This document shows positions 11,255 through 42,155 of a stretch of 64,000 bases of DNA, one piece after another. Where the stretch lies: IMG/VR virus record IMGVR_UViG_3300043775_001731; one strand, written 5' to 3'. Position numbers and translations under genes: made by a program. The DNA comes from a virus. The notes under the pieces are model-generated. The model made no database searches. It worked only from the letters and a program-made list of their open reading frames with translations, and was not told where the DNA came from. The first letter of the stretch is position 1, and the number at the start of each line of letters is the position of its first letter.

Positions 11255-11336
11255 CGTAAGTGCTTGTGGGGTATAGGGTTACGACGAATATCCCCCGCCA
11301 TTTTTGACGTAAACCCTTATGGGATATAGACTTACG
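11255..11336. repeat. paired 29-bp dyad element A
   Basis: CGTAAGTGCTT-gtggggt-ATAGGGTTACG (11255) and CGTAAACCCTT-atgggat-ATAGACTTACG (11308); 53-bp offset. Confidence 0.85.
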
Positions 11337-11384
11337 ACTAATAATATGATCGACACGATGTTCTGTTTAAGAGAATAATATATT

Positions 11385-11400
11385 TGGCACACCGTTTGCT
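11385..11400 (+). promoter_or_regulatory. sigma54-type -24/-12 motif
   Basis: TGGCACACCGTTTGCT (GG-N10-GC). Confidence 0.65.
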
Positions 11401-11459
11401 CTAGAGAATATTTCTTGCTTTGGCACAAGATTATATTCAAAAATATTTTAGATTGCTAC

Positions 11460-11487
11460 TTGACATGGCCGATAAGTATGGTATAAT
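11460..11487 (+). promoter_or_regulatory. sigma70 promoter with GCCGATA spacer box
   Basis: TTGACA-tggccgataagtatgg-TATAAT. Confidence 0.85.
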
Positions 11488-11518
11488 AAGAGCATAAGAA
11501 AGAAAGAGAGAAAGAAAA

Positions 11519-11713
11519 ATGACAATCAACACTGAAATCAAGACAACCTACAATGGCAAGACTTATACGGGCTTCATTGTAGAAAAGAAGATGGTCAAGG
11601 GTCGTGAAATGATCCGAATCATGATTGAAGATAGTTCGCGGAATGAGGGTATTGGATACCGTAGCATGTACGTTGACATGATGACTCAAACTTCCGAAAA
11701 TCTTTTTGCTTAA
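11519..11713 (+). CDS. small early hypothetical protein
   Basis: own promoter and purine-rich leader. Confidence 0.7.
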   Translation: MTINTEIKTTYNGKTYTGFIVEKKMVKGREMIRIMIEDSSRNEGIGYRSMYVDMMTQTSENLFA

Positions 11714-11772
11714 GGCTTGACACGGGAAAAGACGATAGATATAATAGAGAGAAAGAAAGAGAGAGAAAGAAA

Positions 11773-11937
11773 ATGACATACTTCGCACAAATCGTAGACG
11801 CTTGGGATTGTGAACTAGACTTCATCGGCCCTTTCACTAGTGAGGATGCGGCCAATACTGCCGCTTTCGATAAGTGGGATGGTGAGGATGGATGTAGGGT
11901 TTATATCGTTCGTAGACTTCCCGCTTCCAATAACTGA
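11773..11937 (+). CDS. small early hypothetical protein (MTYFAQIVDAWD...)
   Basis: 54 aa; own TTGACA/TATAAT promoter and AAAGAAAGAGAGAAAGAAAATG leader. Confidence 0.65.
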   Translation: MTYFAQIVDAWDCELDFIGPFTSEDAANTAAFDKWDGEDGCRVYIVRRLPASNN

Positions 11938-12013
11938 AAAAATATTTTCTATAGGCTTGACACGGCGAAAGCCGATGAGTATAATAGAGCGAAAGAAAGA
12001 AAAGGAAAAGAAA

Positions 12014-12142
12014 ATGACAACGCTTGTGCTGATCGTAGTAGGAAAGAAATACAAGGTATACAAGGATATGGGCAATGGTAAGCGTAGGCTTCTAGGCTCT
12101 TTCAATAGTTCGACTGAGGCCGAACGATTCATGAACGCTTGA
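12014..12142 (+). CDS. 42-aa early protein, paralog of 13270..13398
   Basis: MTTLVLIVVGKKYKVY...; own promoter. Confidence 0.7.
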   Translation: MTTLVLIVVGKKYKVYKDMGNGKRRLLGSFNSSTEAERFMNA

Positions 12143-12203
12143 CAAATAGATAGACGATAGATATAATATCCACAGTTATCCAACCCTAAGAAAGAAAAAG
12201 AAA

Positions 12204-12419
12204 ATGTTTGGCACTGCATACGCTGTCCGTAAGAATAACCTCAACACTATCTTCGCATCTATGATCGCTGGTAAGTATACCAGTGTGATCGACCCGAAGG
12301 GTAGGGTATATGCTGGCCTTATCAATGCTGTCATGCGTGAGGATGGTAGTGGTCGCAACTGGATCGTAACCATCACGAATCAGACCAAGAGTGAACGGGT
12401 GTTCATTCACGCAGCCTAG
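12204..12419 (+). CDS. small early hypothetical protein
   Basis: own promoter (TTGACA 12139) and purine-rich leader. Confidence 0.7.
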   Translation: MFGTAYAVRKNNLNTIFASMIAGKYTSVIDPKGRVYAGLINAVMREDGSGRNWIVTITNQTKSERVFIHAA

Positions 12420-12544
12420 AGCGTACTATCTAATCTAAACCGGTAAGCACCCCCCACAATAGGGAGACAATAGAATGCCCATTCTAGTATTCGTATGCGT
12501 GTACGTTGGACTACTGTACATCTGTATGACTGTAGAAGATTGAA

Positions 12545-12626
12545 CGTAAAGCCTTATCCTATAAGGACTTAGGGCGAATCCGGCCCCCCAGATTTGACGT
12601 AAACCCTTGTGGCATAAGGACTTAGG
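12545..12626. repeat. paired 29-bp dyad element B
   Basis: CGTAAAGCCTT-atcctat-AAGGACTTAGG (12545) and CGTAAACCCTT-gtggcat-AAGGACTTAGG (12598). Confidence 0.9.
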
Positions 12627-12637
12627 GCGAATATCAA

Positions 12638-12653
12638 CGCAAAATCCGTGCCA
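12638..12653 (-). promoter_or_regulatory. sigma54-type motif (antisense)
   Basis: minus strand TGGCACGGATTTTGCG. Confidence 0.6.
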
Positions 12654-12708
12654 AAAAATAATATATTCCACGCCTAAAAAAGAGGCATGTTAAGATGGGC
12701 AATCCGTT

Positions 12709-12784
12709 GCAAAATGCTACACTACCTCAGTTTCACGGCGGAAATCACTAACGCAAAATGCTACAGGGTGTTGCAAAATGCTAC
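12709..12784 (+). repeat. three direct repeats of GCAAAATGCTAC
   Basis: identical 12-mers at 12709, 12753 and 12773. Confidence 0.85.
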
Positions 12785-12856
12785 GCTCAATATCTAAGCA
12801 CAAAAAATGTCATAGCGTTTTTCCCGAGCGAAACGCAAAAAAAAATAATCTATGTT

Positions 12857-12872
12857 TGGCACGGTAGTTGCT
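12857..12872 (+). promoter_or_regulatory. sigma54-type -24/-12 motif
   Basis: TGGCACGGTAGTTGCT, upstream of the ORF ending at 13052. Confidence 0.7.
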
Positions 12873-13269
12873 CTTATATATAGCATAAGAAAGAGAGAGT
12901 TTAAGATGATGAATAAGACAATGAAAAATGCGATTAAGAGAATCAAGAATGAAAACAATAGGCAAGTTGCATACAATATGCCGATTGTGAATAAGGATAT
13001 GAAAAAGAATGATGAAATGGTTCGTAAGTTTTTTGAAAGTATGAAAGGTTGATAGTATGAGAAAGTCTTATAGATATTCCGATGATGGTTATGATTATTC
13101 CCGTGACAATCGGGACGGATACGTTCAAGAGTTTTTGAAGTCTCTGGAAAGAGATGAGGAAATGAAGCGTATGCAAGAAAAAACGAAAAACGAAAACAAA
13201 AAATCGTAAGTTTTTCCGCTTGCATCTTCAAGATTAGACGCTAGAATGTCGATAGATAAGAAAGAGAAA

Positions 13270-13398
13270 ATGAAAATGACTCAGGTTTTGATCGTAGTCG
13301 GAAACAAGTATAAGGTATATTCCGAAGCCAACGGAAAGCGTAAACTGTTGGGAGTTTTTAAGACTTCCCAAGATGCTATTCGGTTCATGAACTCTTGA
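13270..13398 (+). CDS. 42-aa early protein, paralog of 12014..12142
   Basis: MKMTQVLIVVGNKYKVYSEANGKRKLLGVFKTSQDAIRFMNS. Confidence 0.7.
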   Translation: MKMTQVLIVVGNKYKVYSEANGKRKLLGVFKTSQDAIRFMNS

Positions 13399-13415
13399 AA
13401 CAAGGAAAACAAAAA

Positions 13416-13742
13416 ATGAAAAAGTTTAAGATTATCCGCGATGCCGAACGCCAGATTCGTTCATGCTTTTTGGGAATCGCCGTTCCTCATCAGCCTAGCC
13501 TAGCCGATGGTGAATACGGGCCAATCCGTAGCGAAAAGGTAATCAAGTTTAATAAAACGGCTTTGCGAAATATGGGCAAGATGAAGAAAGAGAAAGTCGA
13601 TCCCCGCCTTGTAGGGGGTAGTGATCTCATGGTTGATAAGGTAGGTAAGCCGGGAAGCAAAGATAGAGTAGAGGCTTTGCGGGCTTTCTATGAACTACAG
13701 AATATGGCAGGACAGGAAATCTCCGCATTTCACGAAGAATAG
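13416..13742 (+). CDS. early hypothetical protein
   Basis: ATG preceded by an AAGGA RBS. Confidence 0.65.
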   Translation: MKKFKIIRDAERQIRSCFLGIAVPHQPSLADGEYGPIRSEKVIKFNKTALRNMGKMKKEKVDPRLVGGSDLMVDKVGKPGSKDRVEALRAFYELQNMAGQEISAFHEE

Positions 13743-13863
13743 GGGGTTTTGGTAAGATAGGCAAGATGGGTAATCTAGGCAAAATGGGGGGTTTGGGGGG
13801 TTTGGGCAAACTGGGAAGTCTCGGCCAAACTGGCCGGATCATTTTGTAGTCAGCGTAGTCAGC
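13742..13863 (+). repeat. 9-bp-period G-rich tract followed by TAGTCAGC x2
   Basis: ggtaagata ggcaagatg ggtaatcta ggcaaaatg gggggtttg gggggtttg ggcaaactg ggaagtctc. Confidence 0.7.
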
Positions 13864-14170
13864 AAAAATCCGCTTGACAACTAAAGTCTAGACGATAGAA
13901 TGTCGATATAAGAACAAAGGAGAAAGAAATGTATCGTGCTAGTTTCATCTTTGTCGTGTTCGTTCTGCCGATTCTGAATATTGTGTTTTGCCTTGGATTT
14001 CTGGCGGGAAAGTATTCACAATGAAAAAGTGGATTTGCTACAATCTGTTTGGTGAACATCCTGATGATGTTGACACGTTTGGTATGGTTAGTGGGCTAGG
14101 CATTTTGGCTTTCTTGGTTTTCTGGACTAGTTATCTTTTTGTTTATCTTCCCTTTTACTTTTGGTGCTAA

Positions 14171-14473
14171 ATGACTCACTCCGAAGCGACTAAGATGGTT
14201 TTGGGCAAGACTAATCGCAGTCAACGTAAGGTGGGAAACAATACCTACGCTTACATTGAACATGATGGAAGTGTGGCGATTGAGTTGCATGGTACTAAGG
14301 TGGTGGTTTTTTATCCTAACGGGCTGATTAAGTTGAGCAGTGGTGGATATCGAACCAGCACTACTAAAAAGCGTATTAATCAGTATAGTCCGGTGAGTGT
14401 GTACCAGAAAAACTTTGAATGGTTTTTGCGTGATGGTACTCCGTTTGAAGATAATGTTTTGGTTCGTAACTAA
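14171..14473 (+). CDS. early hypothetical protein
   Basis: 100-aa ORF (LHGT...LSSGGYRTSTTKKRINQY). Confidence 0.7.
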   Translation: MTHSEATKMVLGKTNRSQRKVGNNTYAYIEHDGSVAIELHGTKVVVFYPNGLIKLSSGGYRTSTTKKRINQYSPVSVYQKNFEWFLRDGTPFEDNVLVRN

Positions 14474-14667
14474 AGAAAGGGATCACGGATGGTCGATATT
14501 AACTGGGTACAAATAGGTGTGGGATTTGTTATTGGCGTTGGTTGCTCTTATCTTGTTTCTGATCTTGTTTTTCCAATAAGGAAGTGAAAATGCGTACAGG
14601 TGATGCGATTGTTCTTTCTATTTCATTCGTGATCGGATGTATAGCGGCTTGGATTGTGAACAGTTGA

Positions 14668-14727
14668 CGTAACTCTATATCTGACAAGGGTTTAGGGCGA
14701 ACGGGGCGGGCCGCGATTTTCGTGCCA
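14668..14727. repeat. dyad element C (single dyad + linker + antisense TGGCACG)
   Basis: CGTAACTCTAT-atctgac-AAGGGTTTAGG, GGGGCGGGCCGCG linker, CGTGCCAAA exactly 53 bp after the dyad start. Confidence 0.8.
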
Positions 14728-15030
14728 AATCACCTTTCATCTTTTTAAGGAAAAAATATTGTTGGAGGGGCTTGACATTGCCGATATACCCTGTATGATG
14801 ATGGTATCACAAGGAGAAATGGAAATGAATACCTTTGAAGATCAAGAAGCGATGGATGCTTTCTTTGCCACACTGATCGCAGAAGAAGTGGTGGAACCAA
14901 TGGTTGAGCCGATTGACGAACCGGATTGTAGTCCGTTTGACTATGCAGAAGTGACGGGCCTGTGGGATGAAATGTATCCCGAGCCGCTTGACATCAACGA
15001 TTTCGTGTGGTAAAGTCTAACTAAGGAGAA

Positions 15031-15252
15031 ATGAAGATGAGTCACCCAGATCCCTGCTACGATCCCGAAAACTCTTATGAGGATGATGACATGGAATACC
15101 ATGATGATACTGCCGATGCTATCTATGATGATTACAATGATTTCTATGATGATAGTATGGATGGCGACCACGATAGTGCTATGAACTCTATCGGTTGGGA
15201 CGTTGATGAAGGTTATGGATGTTTTGGTGACACTTACGGAGATGATTTCTGA
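15031..15252 (+). CDS. extremely Asp-rich small protein
   Basis: AAGGAG RBS; composition dominated by D and Y. Confidence 0.7.
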   Translation: MKMSHPDPCYDPENSYEDDDMEYHDDTADAIYDDYNDFYDDSMDGDHDSAMNSIGWDVDEGYGCFGDTYGDDF

Positions 15253-15656
15253 TGAATGATGCGTTTACTTTGGGCATTTGTTTTGCTTGTGCCGTTGCGG
15301 CGATTGGTATTTTCCTTCTCTATAACATCTATAGGGGTGTAAATGATAGTCTTACTAATGCTGTTACTGGTACTGTATATAACTTTCGATACTTCCAGCC
15401 AGTAACGGGCGACTATGAAAGGTATCTCGCCAAGGTTGTTGGTGTTCGCAAGTTATCTCAGGCTGAAATCTCGCGTTTGAACTGGACAAGTGATTACCGT
15501 CAATATGATAGTGAGTTTAAGCGTAGTCCTACGCTTGTTACATGCGAAATGAGTAACGGTGATTTTCGACAGTTCTATGCTGAACGTAGCGACATGTGCA
15601 GGCGTTCAGCTGTAGGTGAACTTTTGTTCAAGGCTGGTGTGGCACACCTGTTTTAA
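15252..15656 (+). CDS. membrane-anchored hypothetical protein
   Basis: N-terminal TM helix; translationally coupled to the upstream gene. Confidence 0.65.
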   Translation: MNDAFTLGICFACAVAAIGIFLLYNIYRGVNDSLTNAVTGTVYNFRYFQPVTGDYERYLAKVVGVRKLSQAEISRLNWTSDYRQYDSEFKRSPTLVTCEMSNGDFRQFYAERSDMCRRSAVGELLFKAGVAHLF

Positions 15657-15678
15657 TGTACACTGCCTAGACCCTTCT

Positions 15679-15760
15679 CCTAAGTCCTTACGGGCAAAGG
15701 AGTTAGGGCTAGGCGGGCGGGCCGGATTTGTCGTAAAGCGTTGTGGGATATAGACTTAGA
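15679..15760. repeat. paired 29-bp dyad element D
   Basis: CCTAAGTCCTT-acgggca-AAGGAGTTAGG (15679) and CGTAAAGCGTT-gtgggat-ATAGACTTAGA (15732). Confidence 0.85.
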
Positions 15761-16047
15761 AAAAGTTTCAAGTCGGGCTTGACAAACGCCGATAATATGG
15801 TAGGCTACGTAAGTCCGCATAGCATAAGGAGTTATGGTATGTCAAAATGGGATGAATGGGTACACTGCGAGGAATCGGCAGACTTGGTAGTTTGGGAGGA
15901 ATGGGAAGAATACAAAAGGCAGGCAAAATGCGGGGGAGAGTCTTTCCCAAAGAATGAAGATTGATGTTGTGCAGATAGTCAGCGACAGGATGACTTGACA
16001 GACCTTCCATTTTAGAGTAAACTTTGTAGACAAGAAAGGACGATAAT

Positions 16048-16251
16048 ATGATTATCAAACCTAAACAGAACGCTCGCAAGTGGACAAAAGAACGGTTGAA
16101 ACGGCATCCTGGCTTGTGGGAAGTTGAGCAGGAAGCAAAGGAAGCACCGTGCTGGCAGGGAGAAAAGGCTATTCTTTTGAAAAACATTCAAGATGGTTGG
16201 AGTGGCTGGTTTCCTGTAATAGACATTGAGGTAGAAAATGGGAATATTTGA
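16048..16251 (+). CDS. small hypothetical protein
   Basis: AAGGA RBS. Confidence 0.6.
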   Translation: MIIKPKQNARKWTKERLKRHPGLWEVEQEAKEAPCWQGEKAILLKNIQDGWSGWFPVIDIEVENGNI

Positions 16252-16516
16252 TATCTTTACTGCATCTGAGATGAGGGCTATCTGGCGTGATGAGACTAAC
16301 GCATGGCCCGAGAACTTTACTCTATGCGTGAATGATCTACTGGCTAATGATCTTCTGGATTCATGGCTTGACAACCATAGCGATGAGGAGTATCGTGAGC
16401 GTATCCGCGAGATTGTTGAGGATGAGACTTATGGCTATGAAGACGATGATGGTAACGAACTACTGGATTTCAACCCTATCGTAGAAAATGACGGACAGAT
16501 TAAGTTATTTGAATAG
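16238..16516 (+). CDS. acidic small hypothetical protein
   Basis: GAGG RBS; D/E-rich. Confidence 0.65.
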   Translation: MGIFDIFTASEMRAIWRDETNAWPENFTLCVNDLLANDLLDSWLDNHSDEEYRERIREIVEDETYGYEDDDGNELLDFNPIVENDGQIKLFE

Positions 16517-16600
16517 TTGACAAACTGGGGGCTTATGGCATAATGATATCAAAGAAGCCATAAGTAAAAGACAGTCGAGTATGGCAGACACCCCCATTTT

Positions 16601-16674
16601 GGGTCATTAGCTCAGTTGGTTAGAGCATCGGACTTTTAATCCGTTGGTCGTAGGTTCGAATCCTACATGACTCA
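16601..16674 (+). tRNA. tRNA-Lys(UUU)
   Basis: cloverleaf; anticodon loop CTTTTAA; GTTCGAAT T-loop. Confidence 0.95.
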
Positions 16675-16894
16675 TTGACTTTTTGGTGTGTATACAGTAT
16701 AATAGATAAAACCATTCCTTTAACCCCTAAATACTATGTACAACGAAAATGTCATGAAATGGTGCGGCCCTTACGATACTGAAGAGTATGATGATCTTAT
16801 CGTATATGAGGAAGAGATTATCGTAGTAGATGATAGTGAGGAATGGTATAACAATATTTATGCTTCGGAGGCTGACGGTTGAGTTGCGGTGGTG

Positions 16895-16966
16895 GCCGAC
16901 ATAGCTCAATGGTAGAGCCACTGATTTGTAATCAGTAGGTTACAGGTTCAAGTCCTGTTGTCGGCT
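16895..16966 (+). tRNA. tRNA-Thr(UGU)
   Basis: ACTGA-TTTGTAA-TCAGT anticodon arm. Confidence 0.95.
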
Positions 16967-16967
16967 C

Positions 16968-17038
16968 TTCGGGATGGTGAAACGGTATCACGACTGACTT
17001 TGGATCAGTCTTTCTACGTTCGAATCGTAGTCCCGAAA
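16968..17038 (+). tRNA. tRNA-Gln(UUG)
   Basis: ACTGA-CTTTGGA-TCAGT; TTCGGGA/TCCCGAA acceptor stem. Confidence 0.93.
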
Positions 17039-17041
17039 TAT

Positions 17042-17113
17042 TGGCAAATAGCACAACGGTAGTGCAAGCGGCTGTTAACCGCTAGGTTATAGGTTCGAAT
17101 CCTGTTTTGCCAG
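17042..17113 (+). tRNA. tRNA-Asn(GUU)
   Basis: AGCGG-CTGTTAA-CCGCT. Confidence 0.95.
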
Positions 17114-17116
17114 CTT

Positions 17117-17188
17117 GGCCCCATCTTCTAACGGTTAGGAAATCGGATTTTCGCTCCGAGAATCAGGGTTCGATTCCCTGTGGGGTCA
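17117..17188 (+). tRNA. tRNA-Glu(UUC)
   Basis: TCGGA-TTTTCGC-TCCGA. Confidence 0.92.
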
Positions 17189-17192
17189 TTTT

Positions 17193-17266
17193 GGGAATGT
17201 AGATCAATTGGTTAGATCGCTAGCCTGTCACGCTAGAGGTTGCGGGTTCAAGTCCCGTCATTCTCG
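17193..17266 (+). tRNA. tRNA-Asp(GUC)
   Basis: CTAGC-CTGTCAC-GCTAG. Confidence 0.95.
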
Positions 17267-17275
17267 TTTTCTTTT

Positions 17276-17335
17276 CGTAAGTCCTTATCTCTCAAGGATT
17301 TAGCAACAACGGGGCGGGCCGCGTTTTTCGTGCCA
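17276..17335. repeat. dyad element E (single dyad + linker + antisense TGGCACG)
   Basis: CGTAAGTCCTT-atctctc-AAGGATTTAGC; CGTGCCAAA at +53. Confidence 0.85.
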
Positions 17336-17374
17336 AATGCCCTAGGATTCAGTTATTTCATTTTTTGCAACAAG

Positions 17375-17390
17375 TGGCACACGCTTTGCT
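17375..17390 (+). promoter_or_regulatory. sigma54-type -24/-12 motif
   Basis: TGGCACACGCTTTGCT. Confidence 0.65.
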
Positions 17391-17456
17391 CTCTAAAGAT
17401 TTCTCTTGACCATGCCGATATAGAGTGTAGAATGATGGCATACACAGGAGAAAGTT

Positions 17457-18161
17457 ATGAAAGTTGCAGACGGTAACGATAAACTTGGTAAGGGTTGTTT
17501 GGTGGTGTCGCGTCCCGTGGGTGATACTTGCCCACCTACTTGTGCATTTCTTGGTGACGGTTGCTATGCAGAGCAAACCGAGAAAATGTATCCTAACGTG
17601 CGTCCTGCTGGTATGCAGAATCTTATCACAGAGAAGAATCGTATTCGTGCTATGATTCTGGAAGCGATTCGTAAAGAGAAGTCTATTCGTTGGCATGAGC
17701 GTGGTGATTGGTTTCTCAATGGTGAGTTGGATACCAACTATGTTGAGAATGTAATGTGGGCTTGTGAGAGTATTCTGGCCGATGGGGTTGCGTTGCCCGA
17801 TATGTGGTTTTATACTCATATCTACGATAGTCGCCTTGTGGCATTTGAAAAGTATATGAATGTATATGCTAGTATCCACAATGATACCGATATGAATGAG
17901 GCAAAGGCTCAAGGTTTCAAACTGTTCGCGTGGTGCGATAGTGATCAAAAGATTGCTAAGAAGCGTCCCAAGCGTAAAGCCGCTGCTGCTGAGTGGCGTA
18001 ACAGTCTGCCCAAACTCGTCGTGCTAAATGGTACGAAGTTTATCACTTGCCCCGAAATCCGTCGTGGTCGTGGCGTTGTCACTTGCACACCGACTAAGGG
18101 TAGTGTAGACTGTAATCTGTGCGTCAAGGGTTTGGCTAACGTGTTGTTTCCCTCTCACTAA
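17457..18161 (+). CDS. Gp88-like Cys-rich protein
   Basis: GNDKLG...TCP..C...CYA, IRWHERGDW, WFYTH, TCP...CNLC pattern. Confidence 0.7.
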   Translation: MKVADGNDKLGKGCLVVSRPVGDTCPPTCAFLGDGCYAEQTEKMYPNVRPAGMQNLITEKNRIRAMILEAIRKEKSIRWHERGDWFLNGELDTNYVENVMWACESILADGVALPDMWFYTHIYDSRLVAFEKYMNVYASIHNDTDMNEAKAQGFKLFAWCDSDQKIAKKRPKRKAAAAEWRNSLPKLVVLNGTKFITCPEIRRGRGVVTCTPTKGSVDCNLCVKGLANVLFPSH

Positions 18162-18381
18162 GGATAACTATGGATATTTTTACTTATAAGTGCGTTACAC
18201 TCAAAGATTTTTGTGACCATGTTGATTGGGATTATGAAAATACTATGGAATCATTACTAAATAGTCCTATTAGTTTTGGCCCAAATGATGATACGCTAGT
18301 TCGTCCAGATACATTGGCAGATATTTGTGAGCGTGATTTTCCAGATAACTTTGATGCCGACATTCTTATTAGTCTAGGGAG

Positions 18382-18891
18382 TTGATTATGTATACTATTG
18401 TAAAGAAAAAGAGTGGTTCGGGTTGTGCATCCTCATTCTATAAACTCAAGGGAATGAAGAATAGGGGCTTCAAGGTATTCGATTCTAAAGAGAGTGCAGA
18501 CATTGCACACGCTAACCAGACTGAACTCTCTATGTATAATCTTGCCCCATATGTTTATAGTCAAGTCGGGCGTGTTCGTAGGAGTGATAAGAGTCTCAGC
18601 GGATGGGGCTTTATTACTGAAATCGCTGAACTAATCTGCTGTCCCGGTAATGGTTGTGAATGTTGTGATCGTGGAAGTATTATGTATGATTATGAAAATG
18701 AGATTGATAACCTAATCGGAAACATGGAAGATTGTGGATTTCATTTTGGTGACGATCATCCCGGTAATGTAGGATTTGTAATGCGTGGCGGTCTTCCCGT
18801 TATGGTATGTATTGATACTGGCGATGAAAGCGTTACCAGCGATAACTGTTATTGTATCACTTGCAGAAAGGGCGGTTGCTGCTATGAGTAA
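18382..18891 (+). CDS. protein kinase-like (APH/PKL fold) protein
   Basis: GFKVF, LAPYVY, GDDHPGNVG (catalytic loop-like), VCIDTG (DFG-like). Confidence 0.6.
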   Translation: MIMYTIVKKKSGSGCASSFYKLKGMKNRGFKVFDSKESADIAHANQTELSMYNLAPYVYSQVGRVRRSDKSLSGWGFITEIAELICCPGNGCECCDRGSIMYDYENEIDNLIGNMEDCGFHFGDDHPGNVGFVMRGGLPVMVCIDTGDESVTSDNCYCITCRKGGCCYE

Positions 18892-19111
18892 GTTTTATAT
18901 CAAGTCTAACACGTTGGAACTTATCTACTCTACGGATAAAAGTCCACTAGAGGCCGCTGTTGTAGCACTAGGGGAAACTAATAAGTTTGACGTACTAGAT
19001 GAACACTTTTATATAGATGAGCGTGGTATGAAAGATTATGCCACAGCAAAACCGGATACTATTGTTATTCCCACTAAACTAGTCGCCGCAGAAGCCGGTT
19101 GGACAATGTGA

Positions 19112-19193
19112 CGTAAACCCTTGCCGCCATTAGAGTTATGGTGAGCGGGGCCGGGGAGATTTGACGTAAATCCTTACAGAATATAGACTTAGG
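19112..19193. repeat. paired 29-bp dyad element F
   Basis: CGTAAACCCTT-gccgcca-TTAGAGTTATG (19112) and CGTAAATCCTT-acagaat-ATAGACTTAGG (19165). Confidence 0.85.
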
Positions 19194-19482
19194 ATCATTA
19201 AAGATAGAGTCTTGACTTGACCGATAGTTATGGTAGAGTACGTATATAGGAGAAACAGTTATGTATGTATGGAGAGTTTGGAAGAATAACCGGTTTGCGG
19301 GGTATGTAACGTCTGCAAGCCAGTTTGAAGCATATGTTAAGGCGACTGAGGAATATGGGCAAAATGTATGGGTTGAGAAGACTGCGGAATATAAGGTTGT
19401 CTTTGCCTAATCAGACAGATCATTTTCTCAGGGGTAGTCAGCCAGCCTAAAGTTTGTTGAACAGAATGCCGATAATCCTTAT

Positions 19483-19830
19483 ATGAAAAAGGAGAAAGGT
19501 ATCATGATTCAGTGGATTGGCGTGATTATCACGATTTGTGGATTGGTTTATACGGGCTTCAAGGATGTTCAATCTGGAAATATAAAAATCCCTCAAATAT
19601 CTAAAACTGAGGTCTTGACAAAGACGAACTATCCTATACAATACTGTCTGATGGCTTACGATCCTAATACTGACAAAGTTTACTATCAACACGAAAACGG
19701 AATATGGTATGATTACCCTCCACAACAACGACGATACTCGGCCACGCCGAAACGTGATCAAAATCAAGAAAGTTATGCCGTGGGAAATGCGGCAGGGACA
19801 TCAAGAACACAAGTATACGGTGTTCGATAA
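19483..19830 (+). CDS. membrane-anchored hypothetical protein
   Basis: N-terminal TM segment. Confidence 0.55.
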   Translation: MKKEKGIMIQWIGVIITICGLVYTGFKDVQSGNIKIPQISKTEVLTKTNYPIQYCLMAYDPNTDKVYYQHENGIWYDYPPQQRRYSATPKRDQNQESYAVGNAAGTSRTQVYGVR

Positions 19831-20029
19831 TCGTCCCAAGCGTCAACGTACTCGTAAGTCTATTGACAGGAGGTGGCGTGATGAGTATGATATGTGAACA
19901 GTGCGATAGTAATCGTATAGGTTACGACGCATGGGTAGACCAAGATGGTAACGTCATTGGTGGCCCGTATGATAACTGTCAGTGTATGGATTGTGGTTCC
20001 TCTAACGTCATTGAAGAAAGAGACATCTA

Positions 20030-20521
20030 ATGCCTAACTGGTGCATGAATAATCTGTATATTTCCCATAGCGATCCTGCGAAGTTGCAAGAGTTTGTTGA
20101 TGCCTATAACTCTGGCAAAACGTGTGAGCATTACTTGCCAGTTCCCGAAGGATATTATGAAGATGATGGGCCAAATCCGCGTTGGTATAACTGGTGTTGC
20201 AATAACTGGGGAACCAAGTGGGACTTTGGCAAGGATGAATACTACGATCCTGCTAAGATTGAAGATGGTAAGGTTATGGTGTCATTCAATACCGCATGGT
20301 CGCCCCCTATTCAGTTCTATGAAAAACTGGTAGAGTTGGATTATAATGTTCGTGCTACATACTTTGAGCCGGGAATGGCCTACTGTGGCATTTGGGATAA
20401 TGGTATTGACAACTATATTGAATATGGTGATATGGATAATAAGCAGGATATTATTCCTGTAGCACTGTGGAATGAGTATGGTATGGACGAGTTCTTTGAG
20501 ATGATGGAGGAGGATGTATGA
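20030..20521 (+). CDS. DUF1281/YubB ferredoxin-like domain protein
   Basis: MPNWC.N, WCCNNWGTKWD, FNTAWSPP, YFEPGMAYCG. Confidence 0.8.
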   Translation: MPNWCMNNLYISHSDPAKLQEFVDAYNSGKTCEHYLPVPEGYYEDDGPNPRWYNWCCNNWGTKWDFGKDEYYDPAKIEDGKVMVSFNTAWSPPIQFYEKLVELDYNVRATYFEPGMAYCGIWDNGIDNYIEYGDMDNKQDIIPVALWNEYGMDEFFEMMEEDV

Positions 20522-20928
20522 TCAAGGTACGCTATCATCTTCAGAAGGGTCAGTATTATAAGCACTGGCAGTTCAAAGATACTATAACTAAGAGGGTCTG
20601 GTATGTTCATCCAGAAGAGCAAATCATTGAACTCCATAACTGTGTTCTATATAACAACCGTAATGTAGCAAACAAGATTTATATGGGGGCTAATAAGGAT
20701 GTTTGTGCATGGATTAAGTTTAAGGATGGATTTAAATATGATGATTCATATATCCCCTCATATTCTACTCACCTAAAGTATGACCCTAGGAAACTCCCAT
20801 ACTGGCATACTTGGTCAGGAAGAAACATTGACGGTCTTGCATTTGACATCCTTCACCTTACATCAAAGGGTGTGTTCTATAATGAATGTAGGCAAGATAT
20901 TTTGAATCCTCTAAAGATTGCCCCTTGA
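20518..20928 (+). CDS. hypothetical phage protein
   Basis: coupled to the upstream gene. Confidence 0.6.
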   Translation: MIKVRYHLQKGQYYKHWQFKDTITKRVWYVHPEEQIIELHNCVLYNNRNVANKIYMGANKDVCAWIKFKDGFKYDDSYIPSYSTHLKYDPRKLPYWHTWSGRNIDGLAFDILHLTSKGVFYNECRQDILNPLKIAP

Positions 20929-20973
20929 CAAGCCGATAACACAGTGTAGAATGAGGGAGTAAGACAAAACAAA

Positions 20974-21260
20974 CATCCGTGGGTCCATGCGACGGGACTA
21001 GATTAGGATAAGCCATTACGATAAACCTACGGCTGTTACGCAGCGTGGGGTTGACAGCGGGCTTATACGCTGTATAGTAGTGCTAATCTATAAGGGATGG
21101 CATCCTCACCACGAGTCATACAACCAGTAATCGTTCCAAGAGCCAGACGGCATGAGTCATGAACTATGCCTAGGAAGGATTTCCGTGGGCGGTTTCCTCA
21201 GTTCCGTAAAAGGGTAGACTGATGGGTAATAGAATCGGGGCGTAAAAGATTCGCTGGTTT
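20974..21260 (+). ncRNA. candidate structured ncRNA with pseudoknot
   Basis: ORF-free region behind a promoter (20925-20952); nested helices and loop-upstream complementarity. Confidence 0.6.
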
Positions 21261-21999
21261 ATAATACAAAGGAAAAAAATGAGAATATCTAAGAAACAAA
21301 TAGCAGATGCTCTTAGTATTGATATTGATGATTTATCATTTCATGATATTGGTATTGCATTATTAAATATTGAGAATATACTTGATAGCGTTGCTGAAAA
21401 TCTTGATGATGATTTTGAATCTGCGGCTTTGGGTGATGCTTCTAACCTAATCCAAATGATAAGGAATGGATTGAATGACTGATAAAGAAAAAGCAATGCT
21501 GAAGGTGATGAAGGTTTTGAAAAGCCCTATGGTTGCGGCTTGTAAACCAATCAGAGAAGATGCCTTGACATTAGCAGCAGAGCATGGTATAACTGTGGAA
21601 GAGTTGATTGACTTTGCCTACAAAATAGCGATGAGTGTATGATGACTAACGAAATGGTACAATGTATCTGTGGTACAGTAATAGCAGTTGCTTTCCTTTA
21701 CTTTCAGTATAAGAATAGAAATCAATAATGGAATGGATTAGTTTTCATGGCCCTCGTCGCCCTGTTAATGGTCAAAAGATCATCTATTATGGTGAGGCCA
21801 TTGGTGTGTGGCGTGGTACATATAAGATAAACTATGATGATAAGTTTTGTATTCATAATATCTATTGTGGCGAAACTTGGGGAAATGTAGATTATATGGA
21901 TGCCCCGTGGTGGATGCCAGATTTAGGACAAGAGAAACCACAACCACCTAGCGAAGATTACCCTCCCGATTACCCTTGGATTACTAATAAGGAAAACAA

Positions 22000-22356
22000 A
22001 TGATTAACGTTGGCATGACGATTCGTGAGATGGTGAGCATTGCTACTTCAACCAATAGCCCCGATCTTTACGAGAGGATCATCAAGGCTCTGGAACTGGC
22101 TACTGGCAACGAGAAGTTGTTGGTTGGCTGTAACGGTGTCAGGTATGACACTCAGTATTGGGATCATAAGATCGCTGCCATCAAGGTTCTCCGATTTGCT
22201 ACCGGTTGGGGACTCAAGGAAAGTAAGGATTGGGTTGAAAGTTGTCAGCACGACGCTAAAACTAACTACTCTCCTCCTCTTGACCCAGCATCTGCACAAA
22301 AACTGTGCGACGAACTCAAGAAGTGTGGTATGGATTGCTGGACCACTAACTCTTGA
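22000..22356 (+). CDS. protein with ribosomal bL12 C-terminal-domain-like region
   Basis: KIAAIKVLRFATGWGLKESKDWVES. Confidence 0.75.
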   Translation: MINVGMTIREMVSIATSTNSPDLYERIIKALELATGNEKLLVGCNGVRYDTQYWDHKIAAIKVLRFATGWGLKESKDWVESCQHDAKTNYSPPLDPASAQKLCDELKKCGMDCWTTNS

Positions 22357-22363
22357 AGCTCGC

Positions 22364-22445
22364 CTTAAGTCCTTATCCCACAAGGATTTAGGACCAAGGG
22401 GGCGGGCCGCGTTCGTCGTAAGTCCTTACCCACCAAAGACTTATG
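22364..22445. repeat. paired 29-bp dyad element G
   Basis: CTTAAGTCCTT-atcccac-AAGGATTTAGG (22364) and CGTAAGTCCTT-acccacc-AAAGACTTATG (22417). Confidence 0.9.
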
Positions 22446-22550
22446 ACCAATAAAAATTTTTTTCAAGATTCCGCTTGACAGAGCCGATAATACATGTATA
22501 ATGATTAGAGTAACGGGTTGATAACACTAACTTGATAAGAGGAGATTATT

Positions 22551-22820
22551 ATGCAGAAGTTTACGTTTGTTGTTGATATTGTGACCGATTCGCCGGTTGG
22601 TATTGAGCCGCAGGCTGTTCGTGATACGCTTCTGGCGTCTGTCGATGGCATCGGCAATATCGCCGCTGTTCATCCTGTCAAGAGCGAGACTCTCAAGGAA
22701 CAGGGTTTCAAGGTTTGGCGGGCAAGGGTTGCTGGTATCAAGGAACCGGCCAAGGTCAAGGTTCCCAAGGCTCCCAAGGCCAAGAAGGTCGAAGCGGAAG
22801 TTGCTACGGCTACCGCTTGA
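22551..22820 (+). CDS. small protein with Lys/Ala/Pro-rich tail
   Basis: promoter at 22475, GAGGAG RBS, KVKVPKAPKAKK. Confidence 0.7.
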   Translation: MQKFTFVVDIVTDSPVGIEPQAVRDTLLASVDGIGNIAAVHPVKSETLKEQGFKVWRARVAGIKEPAKVKVPKAPKAKKVEAEVATATA

Positions 22821-22911
22821 TTTTCTAAAGACGTTACGCTAGAATGTCGATACTAGGTGAAGTAGTAGTAACCTAGTATCCATTCTGGCAACCACTAACT
22901 AGGAGTTTACA

Positions 22912-23268
22912 ATGGGTTTGGATCAGTGGGCATTTGCTGTTGACAACAATGGAGAGAAGGAAGAACTCGCTTGCTGGCGTAAGCATCCTAATCTTCAAGG
23001 TTGGATGGAGAATCTGTGGGAAAGTAAGGGTCGCCCTAATGCCCACGAAAATGATGACTCTTTCAACTGTGTTGAACTTGAACTTACTAAAGAAGATCTG
23101 GATAGTCTAGAGCAGGATGTTACTAATGCTAGTCTGCCAGACACCGTAGGATTTTTCTTTGGTAGTAATAGTGATGATATCTATGGTCAACAGGACTTGG
23201 AGTTTGTCAAGAAAGCCAGAGAGGCACTTGACAGCGGACTAACGGTAGTGTATGATAGTTGGTGGTGA
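22912..23268 (+). CDS. conserved-looking phage hypothetical protein
   Basis: MGLDQW...WRKHPNLQGWM...YDSWW. Confidence 0.7.
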   Translation: MGLDQWAFAVDNNGEKEELACWRKHPNLQGWMENLWESKGRPNAHENDDSFNCVELELTKEDLDSLEQDVTNASLPDTVGFFFGSNSDDIYGQQDLEFVKKAREALDSGLTVVYDSWW

Positions 23269-23715
23269 CATTACGATAACAATGAGGAACGACATGAAGA
23301 TTCTTGGATTGAATGATGAGACTGATGCGGGCAAGGTTGTGCGTATTAGTCGTGATGGTGTGACGTTTGAGAAGAACGGTGCAAGGGTTGTGTTGACCCT
23401 CACTGAAGTTGAGTCGATGGTTTTTTCTAACTAAGGGAGAGATGATGTCTAATAACTTTGCTAGTCTGCGTAAGGATCGTCATATCAAGTGTAAGTATCC
23501 TCTGCACGGTACTAAGAACGTGCTGAAGTTCCACACTGGTCGTGTTCTGCGTGTTGGTACTGGCCCCAATGGCAAGTATGCTGTTGTTCGTGCTATGGAT
23601 AACACTGTGCGAACCCTGCTTTGCGATAAGATGTTGGAAACGAAATGCTATCGGTGATTCTCCCTTGAGTGTACGGGTGGCGTATGGTACAATGCTATGC
23701 GTCACCCGTATCTAT

Positions 23716-23791
23716 GGGGCGTAAGGTAAGCCGGTTGCATCCGACACTCTTATAAGGTGTTCATAGGTAGGTTCGACTCCTACACGCCCTA
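23716..23791 (+). tRNA. tRNA-Ile(UAU)
   Basis: ACACT-CTTATAA-GGTGT anticodon arm; GTTCGACT T-loop; GGGGCGT/ACGCCCT acceptor; atypical D-arm. Confidence 0.8.
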
Positions 23792-24344
23792 TTGTGTTGT
23801 TATCATCACACTAGGGAGGTTTCTTGATAGAACTAATGATTATGATATTCGTTTGGAGTATGCTGTTTACAGAAGAATAAATAGGACGTTGTTTGAATAC
23901 TAAAAGTCAACACGCCCCCAACCATTTAGGAGATAGTATATTATGAACGAGAAAGTAGCCACTTATGTTATGGATGATGTACAGTATGATATTTATGCGT
24001 GTTATGATTCTTGGGCTGATATGGATACTCGTAATGTATCTTTCTATGACGTTTACAACCAGAAAACGGGAGCGTGTGTAAACGAGGGAGATCCTTTCTA
24101 CGAGTTTCCAACGTGGGATGATATTTTCAACAACTACTACTCAAAGGTGTAATATGTACCATTACGTTACTGTCTGTGTTATTATGCGTGATTGTGAAAA
24201 TGAAAAGGATGCTTTAGAAAAATGCTCTAGACTCCTACCATATGATCCCGATATAAATACTAGGCATATGGAGTCGTGGGAGATAACAGAAGTATACGAA
24301 ACTGCTACTGGTAAAACATACATAGAAACTCAGGAGTGCTAATC

Positions 24345-24806
24345 ATGGGTATGGGTAGTTATGCGGTAAGTAGTTATGTTATTCCATACGATGAACTGAA
24401 AAAGATTTGTCCAGATGAAATAGCGGCTATTGAAAAGGAAAAGTATTTTGATTCTGTGGGTTGGAATAGTATTGGATGTTGGATGTCGTGGAGCGATCCC
24501 GATCAGTTCAAAGAGAATATCTTAGAATCTTTGGATAATCCAGAAAGCGAAGATAGCGAAAAGATTGCAGAGGAAATGGTTAAGGTGTATGACAATCATA
24601 TTATCAATCTTACAAAGGCTTTCAACGAAAAAACTGGATTGACTTTATACTTTGATAATTACGATGAAGATCAAGGCGATAGATATGATGAGCCGGGAGA
24701 TGAAGATGGTTGTATATTCTGCGTAAGTGGTATGGTACAACTTAGTCCTGCTGGCGAGAAATATAAAGATATTATTACTGAGCGTAGATGGACTCAGTTT
24801 GGATAA
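24345..24806 (+). CDS. acidic hypothetical protein
   Basis: AGGAG RBS. Confidence 0.65.
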   Translation: MGMGSYAVSSYVIPYDELKKICPDEIAAIEKEKYFDSVGWNSIGCWMSWSDPDQFKENILESLDNPESEDSEKIAEEMVKVYDNHIINLTKAFNEKTGLTLYFDNYDEDQGDRYDEPGDEDGCIFCVSGMVQLSPAGEKYKDIITERRWTQFG

Positions 24807-24835
24807 TGCTTGGGAAGACTAGCACCGTGATTCGC

Positions 24836-24917
24836 TCTAAGTCCTTTAGCCACAAGGATTTAGGGCGAACGCGGCCCGCCCCGCTTATCGTAAGTCCTTA
24901 TCTATCAACAACTTACG
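24836..24917. repeat. paired 29-bp dyad element H (linker inverted relative to G)
   Basis: TCTAAGTCCTT-tagccac-AAGGATTTAGG (24836) and CGTAAGTCCTT-atctatc-AACAACTTACG (24889). Confidence 0.9.
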
Positions 24918-25270
24918 TCAAAAAGAAAAAACTAATGCTGACCCCTTGACCACGCCGATATCTATGGTATGATGGTTGAAAAGGAGACAGTTATGGTTGC
25001 TGCGGTTTACGATACTTCGTGCGATGCTTTCTGCAAGAACTGCGGGCGTCAGTTTGTGCTGATGTTCAATGAGAGTGATATGTACGATTGGCTGAGTGGT
25101 GCATTTGCTATTCAAGATGCCCTGCACTATCTTTCTATGAATGAACGTGAACTACTGTTGAGCGGAATCTGCGGACAATGTTTCGATGAAATGTTTCCGC
25201 CAGACCTTGACAACGACGAGTGATCCTGTATAATACGAGAAGTTGATAACCCACTACTAGGAGATTGATA

Positions 25271-26467
25271 ATGAGTTACGATAAGTTGACGATTCAGAGC
25301 AAGCCGAGCGAAGGCGATTTTGTTCGTACTCTCACTGGTGCTACTGGCACTGGTTTTGAGAAGGGTACGCATGTTCACAAGGATTGGTGGGCAAAGACCA
25401 AGACCTACGAACAGGTCATGCAGGATGCCAACGTCGCTATTGAGAACCGTGAGGATATTCTGACTGAGCGTAAGAACATTACCTGTGTTGGTAATGATAA
25501 AGGATTCTTTTTGAAGTTGAACGATGGACGAGAGTTTCGCCCTACGGACCACGCCATTGAACAGTTTAGCGTTCGCGTGGGTGTTACCTCGTCCTCGTTC
25601 CTTCGTGAGATGCGTAATATCGAAGATTTCGACCTTGCCGATGCTGACACGATGGCATACGTTGGCAACAATGCTCTGCGTCGAATCGAAGCCGATAAGA
25701 AGTTCCGACTCCGTACATATACGGATGGTACTTGCCGTGCGTTCGTGACTGAGCAATATGCTCCTGTTGATAACCGCTGGTATCTGGAAACCCTGTCGGA
25801 GTTTGTTCCCGGCGGTCGTTTCAGTCACTGGCGTGGCGATGAGGATACTATCTATGGTAATATCCTTATCCCCGATACTATCATGGACTACGGTGCTGAC
25901 GATAGTGATTATGGTGGAATGATTAGTGTGGGCAACTGTGAAATCGGCACTCGCCGCATTAGCCAGACGCCTAGCCTTTTTCGTGCCATCTGTATGAACG
26001 GTTGCATCTGGGGTCAGACTAAGGGTGAGAAGATTCGCCGCGTTCACCGTGGCAATATCGACCTCGCTGTTCTGAAAACGGAAATCGCTCATAATATCCA
26101 AGATCAGATTCCGCTTCTTGCTCCCGGTATCAAGCAGTTTCTGGCTACCCGAGCCTTGGAAACTGGCAAGGCTAGCGTGAAGGGTGTCGTGGCTACGGTA
26201 TCGTCGGATTACAAACTGAGCAAGCGTGAAGCAACTGAGTTTCTTGAGCAGTATATTACTATGGAATCTGGAGAGCGTAATCTCTTTGGTATTATCAATG
26301 GTCTGACCCGTGCGGGACAGAAGTTTGATAATAAGACTTGGGTGAAGTTCGATGAAATCGCTGGCAGTCTGTTGGATACTTCCGCAGACCGCTGGGCAAC
26401 GATCCTGCGTCGTGCTGATACTTTCACCGACAAGGATTACGAAAAGGTTTTCGCTCTTACCGCTTAG
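25271..26467 (+). CDS. DUF932-like protein
   Basis: RAFVTEQYAPVDN, ISVGNCEIG, LFRAICMNGCIWG, RRVHRG, NLFGIINGLT. Confidence 0.75.
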   Translation: MSYDKLTIQSKPSEGDFVRTLTGATGTGFEKGTHVHKDWWAKTKTYEQVMQDANVAIENREDILTERKNITCVGNDKGFFLKLNDGREFRPTDHAIEQFSVRVGVTSSSFLREMRNIEDFDLADADTMAYVGNNALRRIEADKKFRLRTYTDGTCRAFVTEQYAPVDNRWYLETLSEFVPGGRFSHWRGDEDTIYGNILIPDTIMDYGADDSDYGGMISVGNCEIGTRRISQTPSLFRAICMNGCIWGQTKGEKIRRVHRGNIDLAVLKTEIAHNIQDQIPLLAPGIKQFLATRALETGKASVKGVVATVSSDYKLSKREATEFLEQYITMESGERNLFGIINGLTRAGQKFDNKTWVKFDEIAGSLLDTSADRWATILRRADTFTDKDYEKVFALTA

Positions 26468-26469
26468 TT

Positions 26470-26516
26470 AGTGGGAGGGTTGGGGTTGGGGGGAAACCCC
26501 CTTCCCCACTCTCACT
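26470..26516 (+). terminator. long GC-rich hairpin after the DUF932 gene
   Basis: AGTGGGAG...GGGG-GGAA-ACCCCC...CTCTCACT. Confidence 0.55.
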
Positions 26517-26530
26517 GACTCCTGACTCGT

Positions 26531-26662
26531 CGTAAGTCCTTTAGCAGCAAGGGTTTAGGGCGACCGGGGCCGGGGCGATCATTCATAAGTCTTTTATTTC
26601 CAAGTACTTACGTCAAGTCTAATAGTAAGACAACGTAAGTCGTTTGTTCTCAAGTACTTGTG
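26531..26662. repeat. triple 29-bp dyad element I
   Basis: dyads at 26531, 26584 (+53) and 26634 (+50). Confidence 0.85.
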
Positions 26663-27279
26663 TCGAGTGTGTCGATATGGTACAATGGGGTAGTGTGTCT
26701 TTGGTAAGATGCACAGGATAGATAAGATAGGGCAAATATATAAGCTGGGCAAATGGGGGTGTACTTCCCCAAATATTGAGATCAACATATTGCAATACAG
26801 TCAGCGAGATTTAACCAAGGAGATAATATATGGCAAAGATTAAAAAAGAAAACGTTGAAGAGACTACGGTGAAGAAGAGTAATTATGGATATACACCATG
26901 TGACTTTATATTTGAATACGTAGAGAAGCCCACTGATTATATATTCTCAAAGTGCTTTAATGTATTTGATGATAAGTGGCGCGTTAATCTATATAGTAAG
27001 CGTTATGTTGAGGGTATTGAAGGTAAGTATATCAGCAATAGTTATTTTGTCAAGTTCAATTCTGATAATAATAAAATATCTATTGTATCACCTTAATTAA
27101 TAAGATCGCCAGAGTAGCCATAGTCAGTGAGATTTGCTTTTCTACTTATAAATATACTAATAGTATATGCGTAGAAACTTTTTTAAAGTTGACAAACCAT
27201 GGCAGACGATGTATACTGGCGTGTATCACTCAATTCTTTAAGATCGCCAAGGTAGCTATAGTCAGTGAAGGAGACAAAA

Positions 27280-42120: not shown

Positions 42121-42155
42121 CTTGACAATAGCAACTAATAGAGATACAATTAGTA

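Follow-up and report, generated by a model that had tools for sequence, protein, structure and literature searches.

A paired 29-bp dyad element in the early regions of uncultured phages and its helical register with sigma70-type promoters

In large lytic phages, no part of the genome is less well understood or evolves faster than the early region. A window of 64,000 nucleotides of virus DNA (IMG/VR record IMGVR_UViG_3300043775_001731; all positions given here are those of the window) contains such a region, in which a 29-bp dyad with 11-bp arms around a 7-bp centre recurs between genes, mostly in pairs. What do these dyads do: are they sites in duplex DNA for a protein, hairpins of the early transcripts, or sites at which gene modules are exchanged? 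An earlier sequence-only reading of the window had preferred sites for a dimeric protein to RNA hairpins. Here the array was compared with its relatives in the IMG/VR collection, and the geometry, the conservation and the surroundings of the copies were used to weigh these possibilities.

The dyad array and its family

Eighteen dyads of 29 bp, which make up nine elements (A to I), lie between 11.2 and 26.7 kb of the window. With up to three mismatches, the consensus dyad gave 16 strand-matches in the window, compared with 0.00 expected from shuffled sequences. All 17 dyads of the sequence-only reading were recovered at their positions, and the 53-bp offset between partners was exact in all seven pairs, whereas the total was one short: an 18th, degenerate dyad lies at 15808-15836. 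A third dyad in the group of element I is offset by 50 bp. That reading had found no dyads outside the array, which holds over the whole 95,491-bp contig, where a looser arm pattern detected no sites outside window positions 11.3-26.6 kb. The early domain (12000-28000) has a GC content of 40-45% and the rest of the window one of about 30-40%, mostly 33-37%, forming a compositional island that matches the array.

The full element is 82 bp long and consists of a 29-bp dyad, a 24-bp linker, and a second 29-bp dyad. In like-oriented copies, dyad 1 is typically CCTAAGTCCTT-N7-AAGGRYTTAGG and dyad 2 CGTAAGTCCTT-N7-AACGACTTACG. The central 16 nt of the linker are 82% GC, and the 7-bp centres of all 18 dyads in the window differ, even inside one pair. 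The orientation of each copy was taken from the asymmetry of its dyads in an nhmmer profile search, by which C, D, E, G, H, and I are alike, A and B are inverted, and F is ambiguous. The earlier observation that the linker occurs in both orientations was right in that the GC core of element H is flipped to C-rich; however, H is co-oriented with C, D, E, G, and I, and the strand of the GC core is not the orientation of the element.

Element A (11255-11336, minus strand; dyads at 11255 and 11308; 45.9 bits on the minus and 31.9 on the plus strand) is a full pair inverted relative to the rightward early genes, and lies at the divergence point between a leftward sigma-factor operon and the early region. 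Element B (12545-12626, minus strand; dyads at 12545 and 12598) is likewise a full, inverted pair, with 62.0 bits on the minus and 47.2 on the plus strand. The full pairs on the plus strand are D (15679-15760; dyads at 15679 and 15732), G (22364-22445; 22364 and 22417; 78.2 bits), H (24836-24917; 24836 and 24889; 78.2 bits on the plus strand), and I (26531-26662), in which the pair at 26531 and 26584 is followed by the third dyad at 26634-26662. Element F (19112-19193; dyads at 19112 and 19165) is the weakest copy, with 34.0 versus 25.7 bits on its two strands. Elements C (14668-14727, plus strand) and E (17276-17335, plus strand), which had been taken for bare single dyads, proved to be half elements, in which a dyad and a GC core are followed by a TGGCAC-type box replacing the second dyad; this box is at 14713-14727 on the minus strand in C and reads CGTGCCAAAT in E. 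Element E begins 9 nt past a tRNA-Asp gene, and F directly after the TGA of an open reading frame (ORF) at 18785-19111. Distances from dyads to stop codons are uninformative in general, because the arms hold TGA and TAA on both strands.

The exact 18-base skeleton of dyad 1 was found at no fewer than 117 loci when scanned against IMG/VR, and most of these loci show the dyad-linker-dyad composite. An nhmmer profile search of the listed IMG/VR loci yielded at least 343 sites, at least 255 of them full and at least 245 distinct; the statistics on conservation, covariation, and the linker refer to 245 distinct full copies among the matches listed. The better strand scored a median of 12 bits above the other, indicating that the element is asymmetric. 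Within each dyad the columns TAA, TT, AA, and TTA (TAA-N4-TT-N7-AA-N4-TTA) are invariant. The 7-bp centre is near random in sequence and fixed in length, and the 11-7-11 layout does not vary in length in any copy. Linkers of 24 nt are found in 179 of the 245 copies and linkers of 23 nt in a further 31; other lengths, between 10 and 33 nt, are rarer. The 53-bp offset seen in the window is thus dominant among relatives but not absolute.

For comparison at the level of whole genomes, the contig of the window (G000) was set beside four relatives (G001-G004), three of them complete and one 94% complete. The contig itself carries its nine copies within 15 kb. G002 (166.6 kb, complete) has 10 copies at 142.1-159.2 kb, G003 (232.7 kb) 17 copies at 20.0-39.5 kb, and G004 (229 kb) 24 copies in one 22-kb domain that runs across the ends of the record. 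In each of the three complete relatives the element is thus limited to a single early-gene domain of 17-22 kb.

Among 185,579 species genomes scanned there were 17 hits. None was in an isolate; all were in metagenome-assembled genomes (MAGs) of unrelated phyla, on contigs that are mostly short. These hits are most likely mis-binned phage DNA, and a host repeat was rejected as an explanation. As far as can be seen, the element is phage-specific. No Rfam family matches it, and a literature search with the motif strings returned unrelated primers only and no published description. Two other classes of repeat were considered and rejected. In a CRISPR mini-array, which has identical repeats and unique spacers of about 30-36 bp, the 24-nt linkers would be spacers, but they are GC-rich variants of each other rather than unique, and the repeats differ; a miniature inverted-repeat transposable element or a repetitive extragenic palindrome (REP) is contradicted by the lack of a transposase, of host-chromosome copies, and of target duplications noticed in the flanks read.

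Register with early promoters

The sequence-only reading had placed the elements just upstream of the next promoter, which applies to C, D, E, F, G, and H of the nine. The next -35 sequence begins at 14772 after C and at 17406 after E. The gap from the last arm base to the -35 sequence is 18 bp for both D (TTGACA) and F (TTGACT at 19212), 29 bp for G, and 28 bp for H. The promoter of G (22475-22502, plus strand) is a perfect TTGACA-16-TATAAT, and that of H is at 24946-24973.

Using a sigma70-type model (TTGAC-N16-18-TAnnnT), promoters were then located around 230 distinct copies in the family. In 109 cases the promoter was downstream on the same strand and in 39 upstream on the opposite strand, whereas promoters facing the element numbered 5 and 5 on the two sides. 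A-rich tracts lie between the element and the -35 sequence. The gaps cluster at 18, 28-29, 38-40, 49-51, and 59-63 bp, with a period of 10.5-10.75 bp (Rayleigh R 0.57-0.58, nominal p of about 1e-18 over 125 sequence clusters) and a phase of 7.6 bp modulo 10.5 that is equal in both orientations of the element. Such dependence on the face of the helix, regardless of orientation, is a property of duplex DNA and the strongest mechanistic clue in the data.

The positions of the dyad centres gave the same picture. Over 1038 distinct promoter contexts, the centres accumulate at -66 to -70 (20), -76 to -80 (51), -86 to -90 (22), and -96 to -100 (16), and a second series of peaks follows 53 bp further upstream at -131 to -135 (41), -141 to -145 (21), and -151 to -155 (14), with troughs between them. 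In none of the 1038 contexts did a centre fall between -60 and +5, and the core promoter is never overlapped. The upstream position together with this exclusion suggests action from upstream rather than repression by occlusion. Among the roles proposed earlier, an early-gene operator or enhancer fits best, in this upstream sense only.

Two features of the early promoters were also noted. At 11460-12167 (plus strand), four perfect TTGACA-N16/17-TATAAT promoters occur within 710 bp, each before a tiny ORF, with no dyads between them. The 16-17 bp spacers of sigma70-type early promoters (for example those at 22475-22502 and 24946-24973, and at many other loci) contain a conserved G(C/A)CGATA just past the -35 sequence, which is unusual for promoter spacers.

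The reading that we prefer, and to which we give somewhat better than even chances, is that the elements are paired upstream docking sites for a dimeric, sequence-specific protein acting on selected early promoters. Each 29-bp dyad would be read as double-stranded DNA by one dimer. The inner CCTT and AAGG blocks, about one turn apart, would suit recognition helices in adjacent major grooves, and the outer TAA and TTA triplets, which are A/T only and 6-7 bp further out, might accept minor-groove contacts by wings or arms. A spacer of fixed length and about 82% GC keeps two dyads on one face of the helix, five turns apart, so that together they could form a platform that receives two dimers. This platform precedes strong early promoters of the sigma70 type, which point away from it. 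The centre of the proximal dyad, at about -68, -78, -89, -100, or -111, is spaced from the promoter by whole turns, and the platform is placed immediately ahead of the UP-element zone. From there the bound protein might contact RNA polymerase (the alpha C-terminal domain or the UP-element zone) or introduce a phased bend, and so set the output of selected early transcription units; alternatively, it might form a boundary between units. Phage, virion, and host are conceivable sources of the protein; should it activate, the need for early promoters to fire before any phage protein exists would favour a factor that is host-encoded or injected. As element and promoter are the best-conserved DNA of a fast-evolving region, they would serve in addition as a seam for homologous exchange of modules.

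Several points weigh against this reading. The copies behind the phasing statistics share ancestry, so that the p-values overstate their independence. Promoters next to the elements already approach the consensus, and many others in the early region are just as strong but lack an element, so that the need for activation is not obvious and the element is not required for promoter activity as such. About 70% of the copies are co-oriented with transcription, which a purely symmetric operator would not need, although this bias may merely reflect common descent with the promoter. Finally, no classical DNA-binding domain emerged from family scans that covered about 50 ORFs, and six-frame scans of the contig and the four relatives gave no HTH_3, MarR, or HU/IHF match; the earlier remark that no cognate protein is evident in the window is still true after these scans.

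RNA folds, sigma54-type boxes, and recombination

If the dyads worked as hairpins of RNA or single-stranded DNA where early transcripts end (as terminators, REP-like stabilisers of 3' ends, or RNase III-type processing sites), their arms should vary together. At the first variable stem position we counted G-T 82, G-C 69, A-C 53, and A-T 4 (A-T about 21 expected), and at the second T-A 95, T-G 89, C-A 41, and C-G 4 (C-G about 17 expected). Double changes that would restore pairing are thus avoided, and no dyad has more than one AAACCC-type arm, which then stands beside an AAGTCC-type arm. For candidate pairs inside a dyad, and equally for those related by the symmetry of the complete element, Watson-Crick combinations are as frequent as independent positions would give, and mutual information does not exceed about 0.1 bit. 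The previous statement that mismatches are non-compensatory is borne out and strengthened by these counts. One asymmetry speaks for hairpins: on the top strand G.T exceeds A.C (82 versus 53, and 89 versus 41 at the second position).

Folding gave a mixed result. The linker folds at -5.8 kcal/mol, compared with -5.6 for shuffles. For six element strands of the window, z-scores were -2.9, -1.8, -2.7, -0.4, -0.8, and -0.4; the copies at -2.9 and -2.7 fold well, whereas three of the six are no better than shuffles, and the predicted shapes differ. The linker as a covarying GC hairpin looked promising by eye in some contigs and was dropped because 245 copies fold no better than shuffles; a single long hairpin, in which the inner flanks would pair with each other and the outer flanks likewise, has a symmetric consensus but shows no covariation within copies.

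The placement of the elements gives hairpins some further support, since they directly follow gene or tRNA ends and leave no space for another terminator, and canonical terminators are not enriched in the region (16 found versus 10.8 expected). However, no U-run follows the dyads, where an A-rich tract is found instead, and of the 60 copies in the four genomes, 42 run with the early genes and 18, about 30%, are inverted with respect to transcription. Phasing to the promoter belongs to duplex DNA, and the lack of an Rfam match also counts against a structured RNA. An RNA or single-stranded DNA fold under selection is not supported, and we regard the hairpin explanation as very unlikely. The preference for dimeric-protein sites over RNA hairpins survives these tests, given the missing covariation, the depletion of compensated changes, the use of both orientations, and the 10.5-bp period.

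Boxes of the form TGGCAC-N5-TTGC, which match the -24/-12 consensus of sigma54 promoters, accompany some of the elements. One adjoins element A (11385-11399, plus strand), with a sister box at 12857-12871 (plus strand); another lies by element B (12639-12653, minus strand), 13 nt outside it, and a sigma54-like box is found by element E (17375-17389, plus strand). Allowing one mismatch, the window has 8 matches versus 2.0 expected, and the four exact ones are all in the early region. The boxes number 5 in G000 and 9 in G002, against 0.15 expected in each, and their enrichment is lower in G003 and G004.

Paired dyads on the same face of the helix are typical of the sites of NtrC-type activators, which would be expected to have a -24/-12 promoter 70-200 bp away and pointing away from them. 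The paired dyads might accordingly be upstream activating sequences for a sigma54 activator that drives the adjoining TGGCAC-N5-TTGC promoters. Three observations are consistent with this possibility: the 10- to 60-fold enrichment of the boxes, the same-face pairing of the dyads, and the fixed offsets of the boxes, which lie 13 nt outside either end of the element with the TTGC side toward the dyad. The commonest boxes (-22 on the plus strand and +100/101 on the minus strand) nevertheless point into the element, and those at other positions (+105 to +139, or -44/-57), which point away from it, belong to a minority of copies. Most elements have no box; in G002 the boxes are restricted to the initial 3 kb of the domain, and the domains of G003 and G004 contain 2-3. 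Moreover, the phasing is to sigma70-type promoters, and neither sigma54 nor an enhancer-binding protein was found in the contig or the four relatives (three of them complete), in scans in which the control genomes were positive every time. A literature search on sigma54 in phages returned nothing useful. The boxes are best described as a lineage-variable accessory, and the probability of the sigma54 enhancer is very low indeed. If the link were functional, it would mean a rare phage early programme that uses the sigma54 holoenzyme.

The boxes are also present in L087, L090, L100, L001, and other loci of the family; they are often paired in convergent or divergent arrangement, and a position between element and sigma70 -35 sequence is frequent. 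Outside some elements, namely in L090, L097, L100, and L001 and at element B of the window, a motif containing GTACA (for example ATGTACATTTGTACA) recurs at a distance of 20-40 bp; it may be a promoter for the phage sigma factor.

Comparison of relatives showed that breakpoints of synteny and homology do fall at the elements. Set against close and intermediate relatives (L089, L093, L101, L102, and L094), the window shows blocks of homology whose starting points, 22366, 24838, and 26523, fall on the first bases of elements G, H, and I. Immediately before these points the DNA is non-homologous or inserted, and in relatives it is replaced or missing; for example, a 156-aa ORF at 24336-24806 is absent from L093. 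The order of 17 core early genes, one letter each, is c/n h/d e l//p o i/a j b m f k/g//q in G000 and G002 and c/h/n/d/e/l/a/f/m k/g/p o i/j b in G003 and G004. Moved blocks are bounded by elements in G003 and G004, while several breakpoints in G000 and G002 have no element. Junctions were broken in 7 of 11 cases with an element and in 1 of 4 without, counts too small for significance.

These findings raise the possibility that the element is mainly a recombination seam, in which the conserved 82 bp and the promoter mediate exchange, insertion, and deletion of early modules, and protein binding is secondary. Documented precedent exists in the promoter-early stem-loops (PeSLs) of T4-like phages (PMC2839356, PMC4122927), and the homology blocks starting at G, H, and I, the non-homologous or inserted DNA upstream of them, and the element-flanked moved blocks agree with it. 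A seam nevertheless leaves unexplained the invariant TAA, TT, AA, and TTA, the fixed 7-bp centre, the 24-nt spacer, the 10.5-bp phasing to promoters, and the empty zone from -60 to +5, and the adjacency test in its favour is underpowered. We consider it unlikely as the main function.

Shuffling of modules could also be the work of a tyrosine-type site-specific recombinase with the dyads as its core sites, one of the roles named in the sequence-only reading. The cores of dif, lox, and att sites have inverted arms of 11-13 bp around a centre of 6-8 bp, a textbook layout that 11-bp arms around 7 bp would match. Strand exchange between copies is, however, blocked by centres that all differ, even within a pair. 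The recombinase families PF00589 and PF00239 are absent from G000-G004, with positive control genomes, as is a Y1 transposase, and the promoter phasing would have no explanation. Although a host enzyme might take the place of one encoded by the phage, this role is not supported and is extremely improbable, and paired docking of a dimeric protein is retained as the preferred reading.

Candidate proteins and known systems

Seventeen early gene families are common to G000, G002, G003, and G004. Pfam and PHROG scans left most early ORFs as ORFans, and the core early proteins scanned were either ORFans or matched domains of unknown function (Kyano_Gp96, DUF7227/GP88, and an L7/L12 C-domain-like protein). 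Two basic core proteins had no hit in the Atlas. The L7/L12 match (C-terminal domain of the ribosomal protein; Pfam, 31.9 bits) is in an early ORF at 22000-22356 (plus strand) that is conserved in all four genomes.

The only nearby protein with a helix-turn-helix (HTH) is encoded by an ORF at 8839-9627 (minus strand; 262 aa), which adjoins the phage sigma factor. Its model shows an HTH followed by a long coiled coil (pLDDT 82) and has a weak fold match to the HK97 small terminase, and residues 2-47 match a PHROG annotated as a D5-like regulator. As a binder of the dyads it is not convincing, given its weak resemblance to that terminase subunit. Because no small terminase was found beside the large one, this modelled protein may itself be the small terminase. 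The sigma factor, of the sigma70 family (Sigma70_r2), is encoded at 9611-10135 (minus strand) and overlaps the start of the HTH gene by 17 nt; both genes are conserved in all four genomes.

The neighbour seen most widely beside the element, in 28 of 118 sources, is a gene for a small CxxC...CxxC protein. In the window it is the first gene past element H (24969-25223, plus strand), with the ATG at 24993 as its probable true start. The core set of G004 lacks it, and an unnamed PHROG is its only family annotation.

The contig is a phage fragment with an estimated completeness of 63% by CheckV. It encodes a terminase, RIIA, ten tRNA or tmRNA genes, and the sigma70-family factor. The terminase is nearest to those of Bacillus and Microcystis phages, and the phage is not T4-like. 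The nearest RIIA, at 34%, is that of Phaeobacter phage MD18, in which the dyad skeleton does not occur. No DNA match was found in 50,697 phage records, and no cultured phage has the element. A phage-borne tmRNA (41773-42121) with the tag GETRFALAA and a tRNA-Ser with an ACU anticodon (42156-42242) were also found; the RFALAA ending recalls betaproteobacterial tags and is a weak hint to the host. Between the window and the contig sequence, 3 bases near the first 15 positions differ, with no bearing on the finding.

How does the element relate to known systems? Upstream sites that depend on the face of the helix include the class I positions of CRP, the Fis sites of rrnB P1, and IHF upstream of lambda pL. 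The element resembles these in having dyads at integral turns upstream of -60, an UP-like A/T tract, and more than one site on a face; its sequence, however, fits none of their consensus sequences, and only AA-N4-TTR resembles part of the IHF core. Protein p4 of phi29 binds as two dimers to paired inverted-repeat sites upstream of early promoters, and in the KorB OB sites of IncP plasmids and the stoperators of cluster A mycobacteriophages one regulator serves many sites dispersed between transcription units. In these three cases the protein is known and is encoded by the same genome, and stoperators are 13-17 bp, asymmetric, and oriented with transcription. Many dispersed copies of a conserved site between units are a shared feature, whereas no homologous protein or site sequence was found here. 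With the REPs and bacterial interspersed mosaic elements of enterobacteria the element shares imperfect palindromes in pairs, a short linker, a location at gene 3' ends, and both orientations. REPs are host-chromosomal and linked to RAYT transposases; in contrast, the present element was found only in phage contigs and scattered short MAG contigs, with no Y1 transposase.

The closest described system is the PeSLs (Arbiol et al. 2010, PMC2839356; Comeau et al. 2014, PMC4122927), in which a short polyG/polyC hairpin was shown to terminate transcription. Both are repeated intergenic cassettes in a plastic early region, both combine a conserved structure-prone motif with an AT-rich tract and a near-consensus sigma70 promoter, and both lie at the borders of indels and swapped genes. 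They differ in that the element described here has two conserved 29-bp dyads 53 bp apart, no U-run, no covariation, both orientations, and phasing to promoters. A linker that folds like shuffles and a region without terminator enrichment likewise suggest that the element is probably not a terminator of the PeSL kind. The likeness is a functional one, of a regulatory cassette with early promoters at recombination seams. The element would class as a dispersed regulatory repeat of the phage early region, and its pair geometry of 29 + 24 + 29 bp is new.

A wider proposal, which we think distinctly improbable, is that the dyads, the TGGCAC-N5-TTGC boxes, and the CGATA spacer motif together make up a new system by which a large clade of uncultured freshwater phages controls early transcription. 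A new protein, co-injected or a host nucleoid protein, would couple sigma70 and sigma54 holoenzymes on enhancer-like platforms and insulate neighbouring units, and the platforms would double as points of cassette exchange.

Taken together, an 82-bp element conserved in well over a hundred uncultured phage contigs extends the idea of regulatory cassettes as seams of modular exchange past the T4-like phages to an element of different build. Standing upstream of selected early promoters and in strict helical register with them, it implies a regulator or architectural protein that nobody has named, and it provides a defined DNA bait with which its binder could be fished for.

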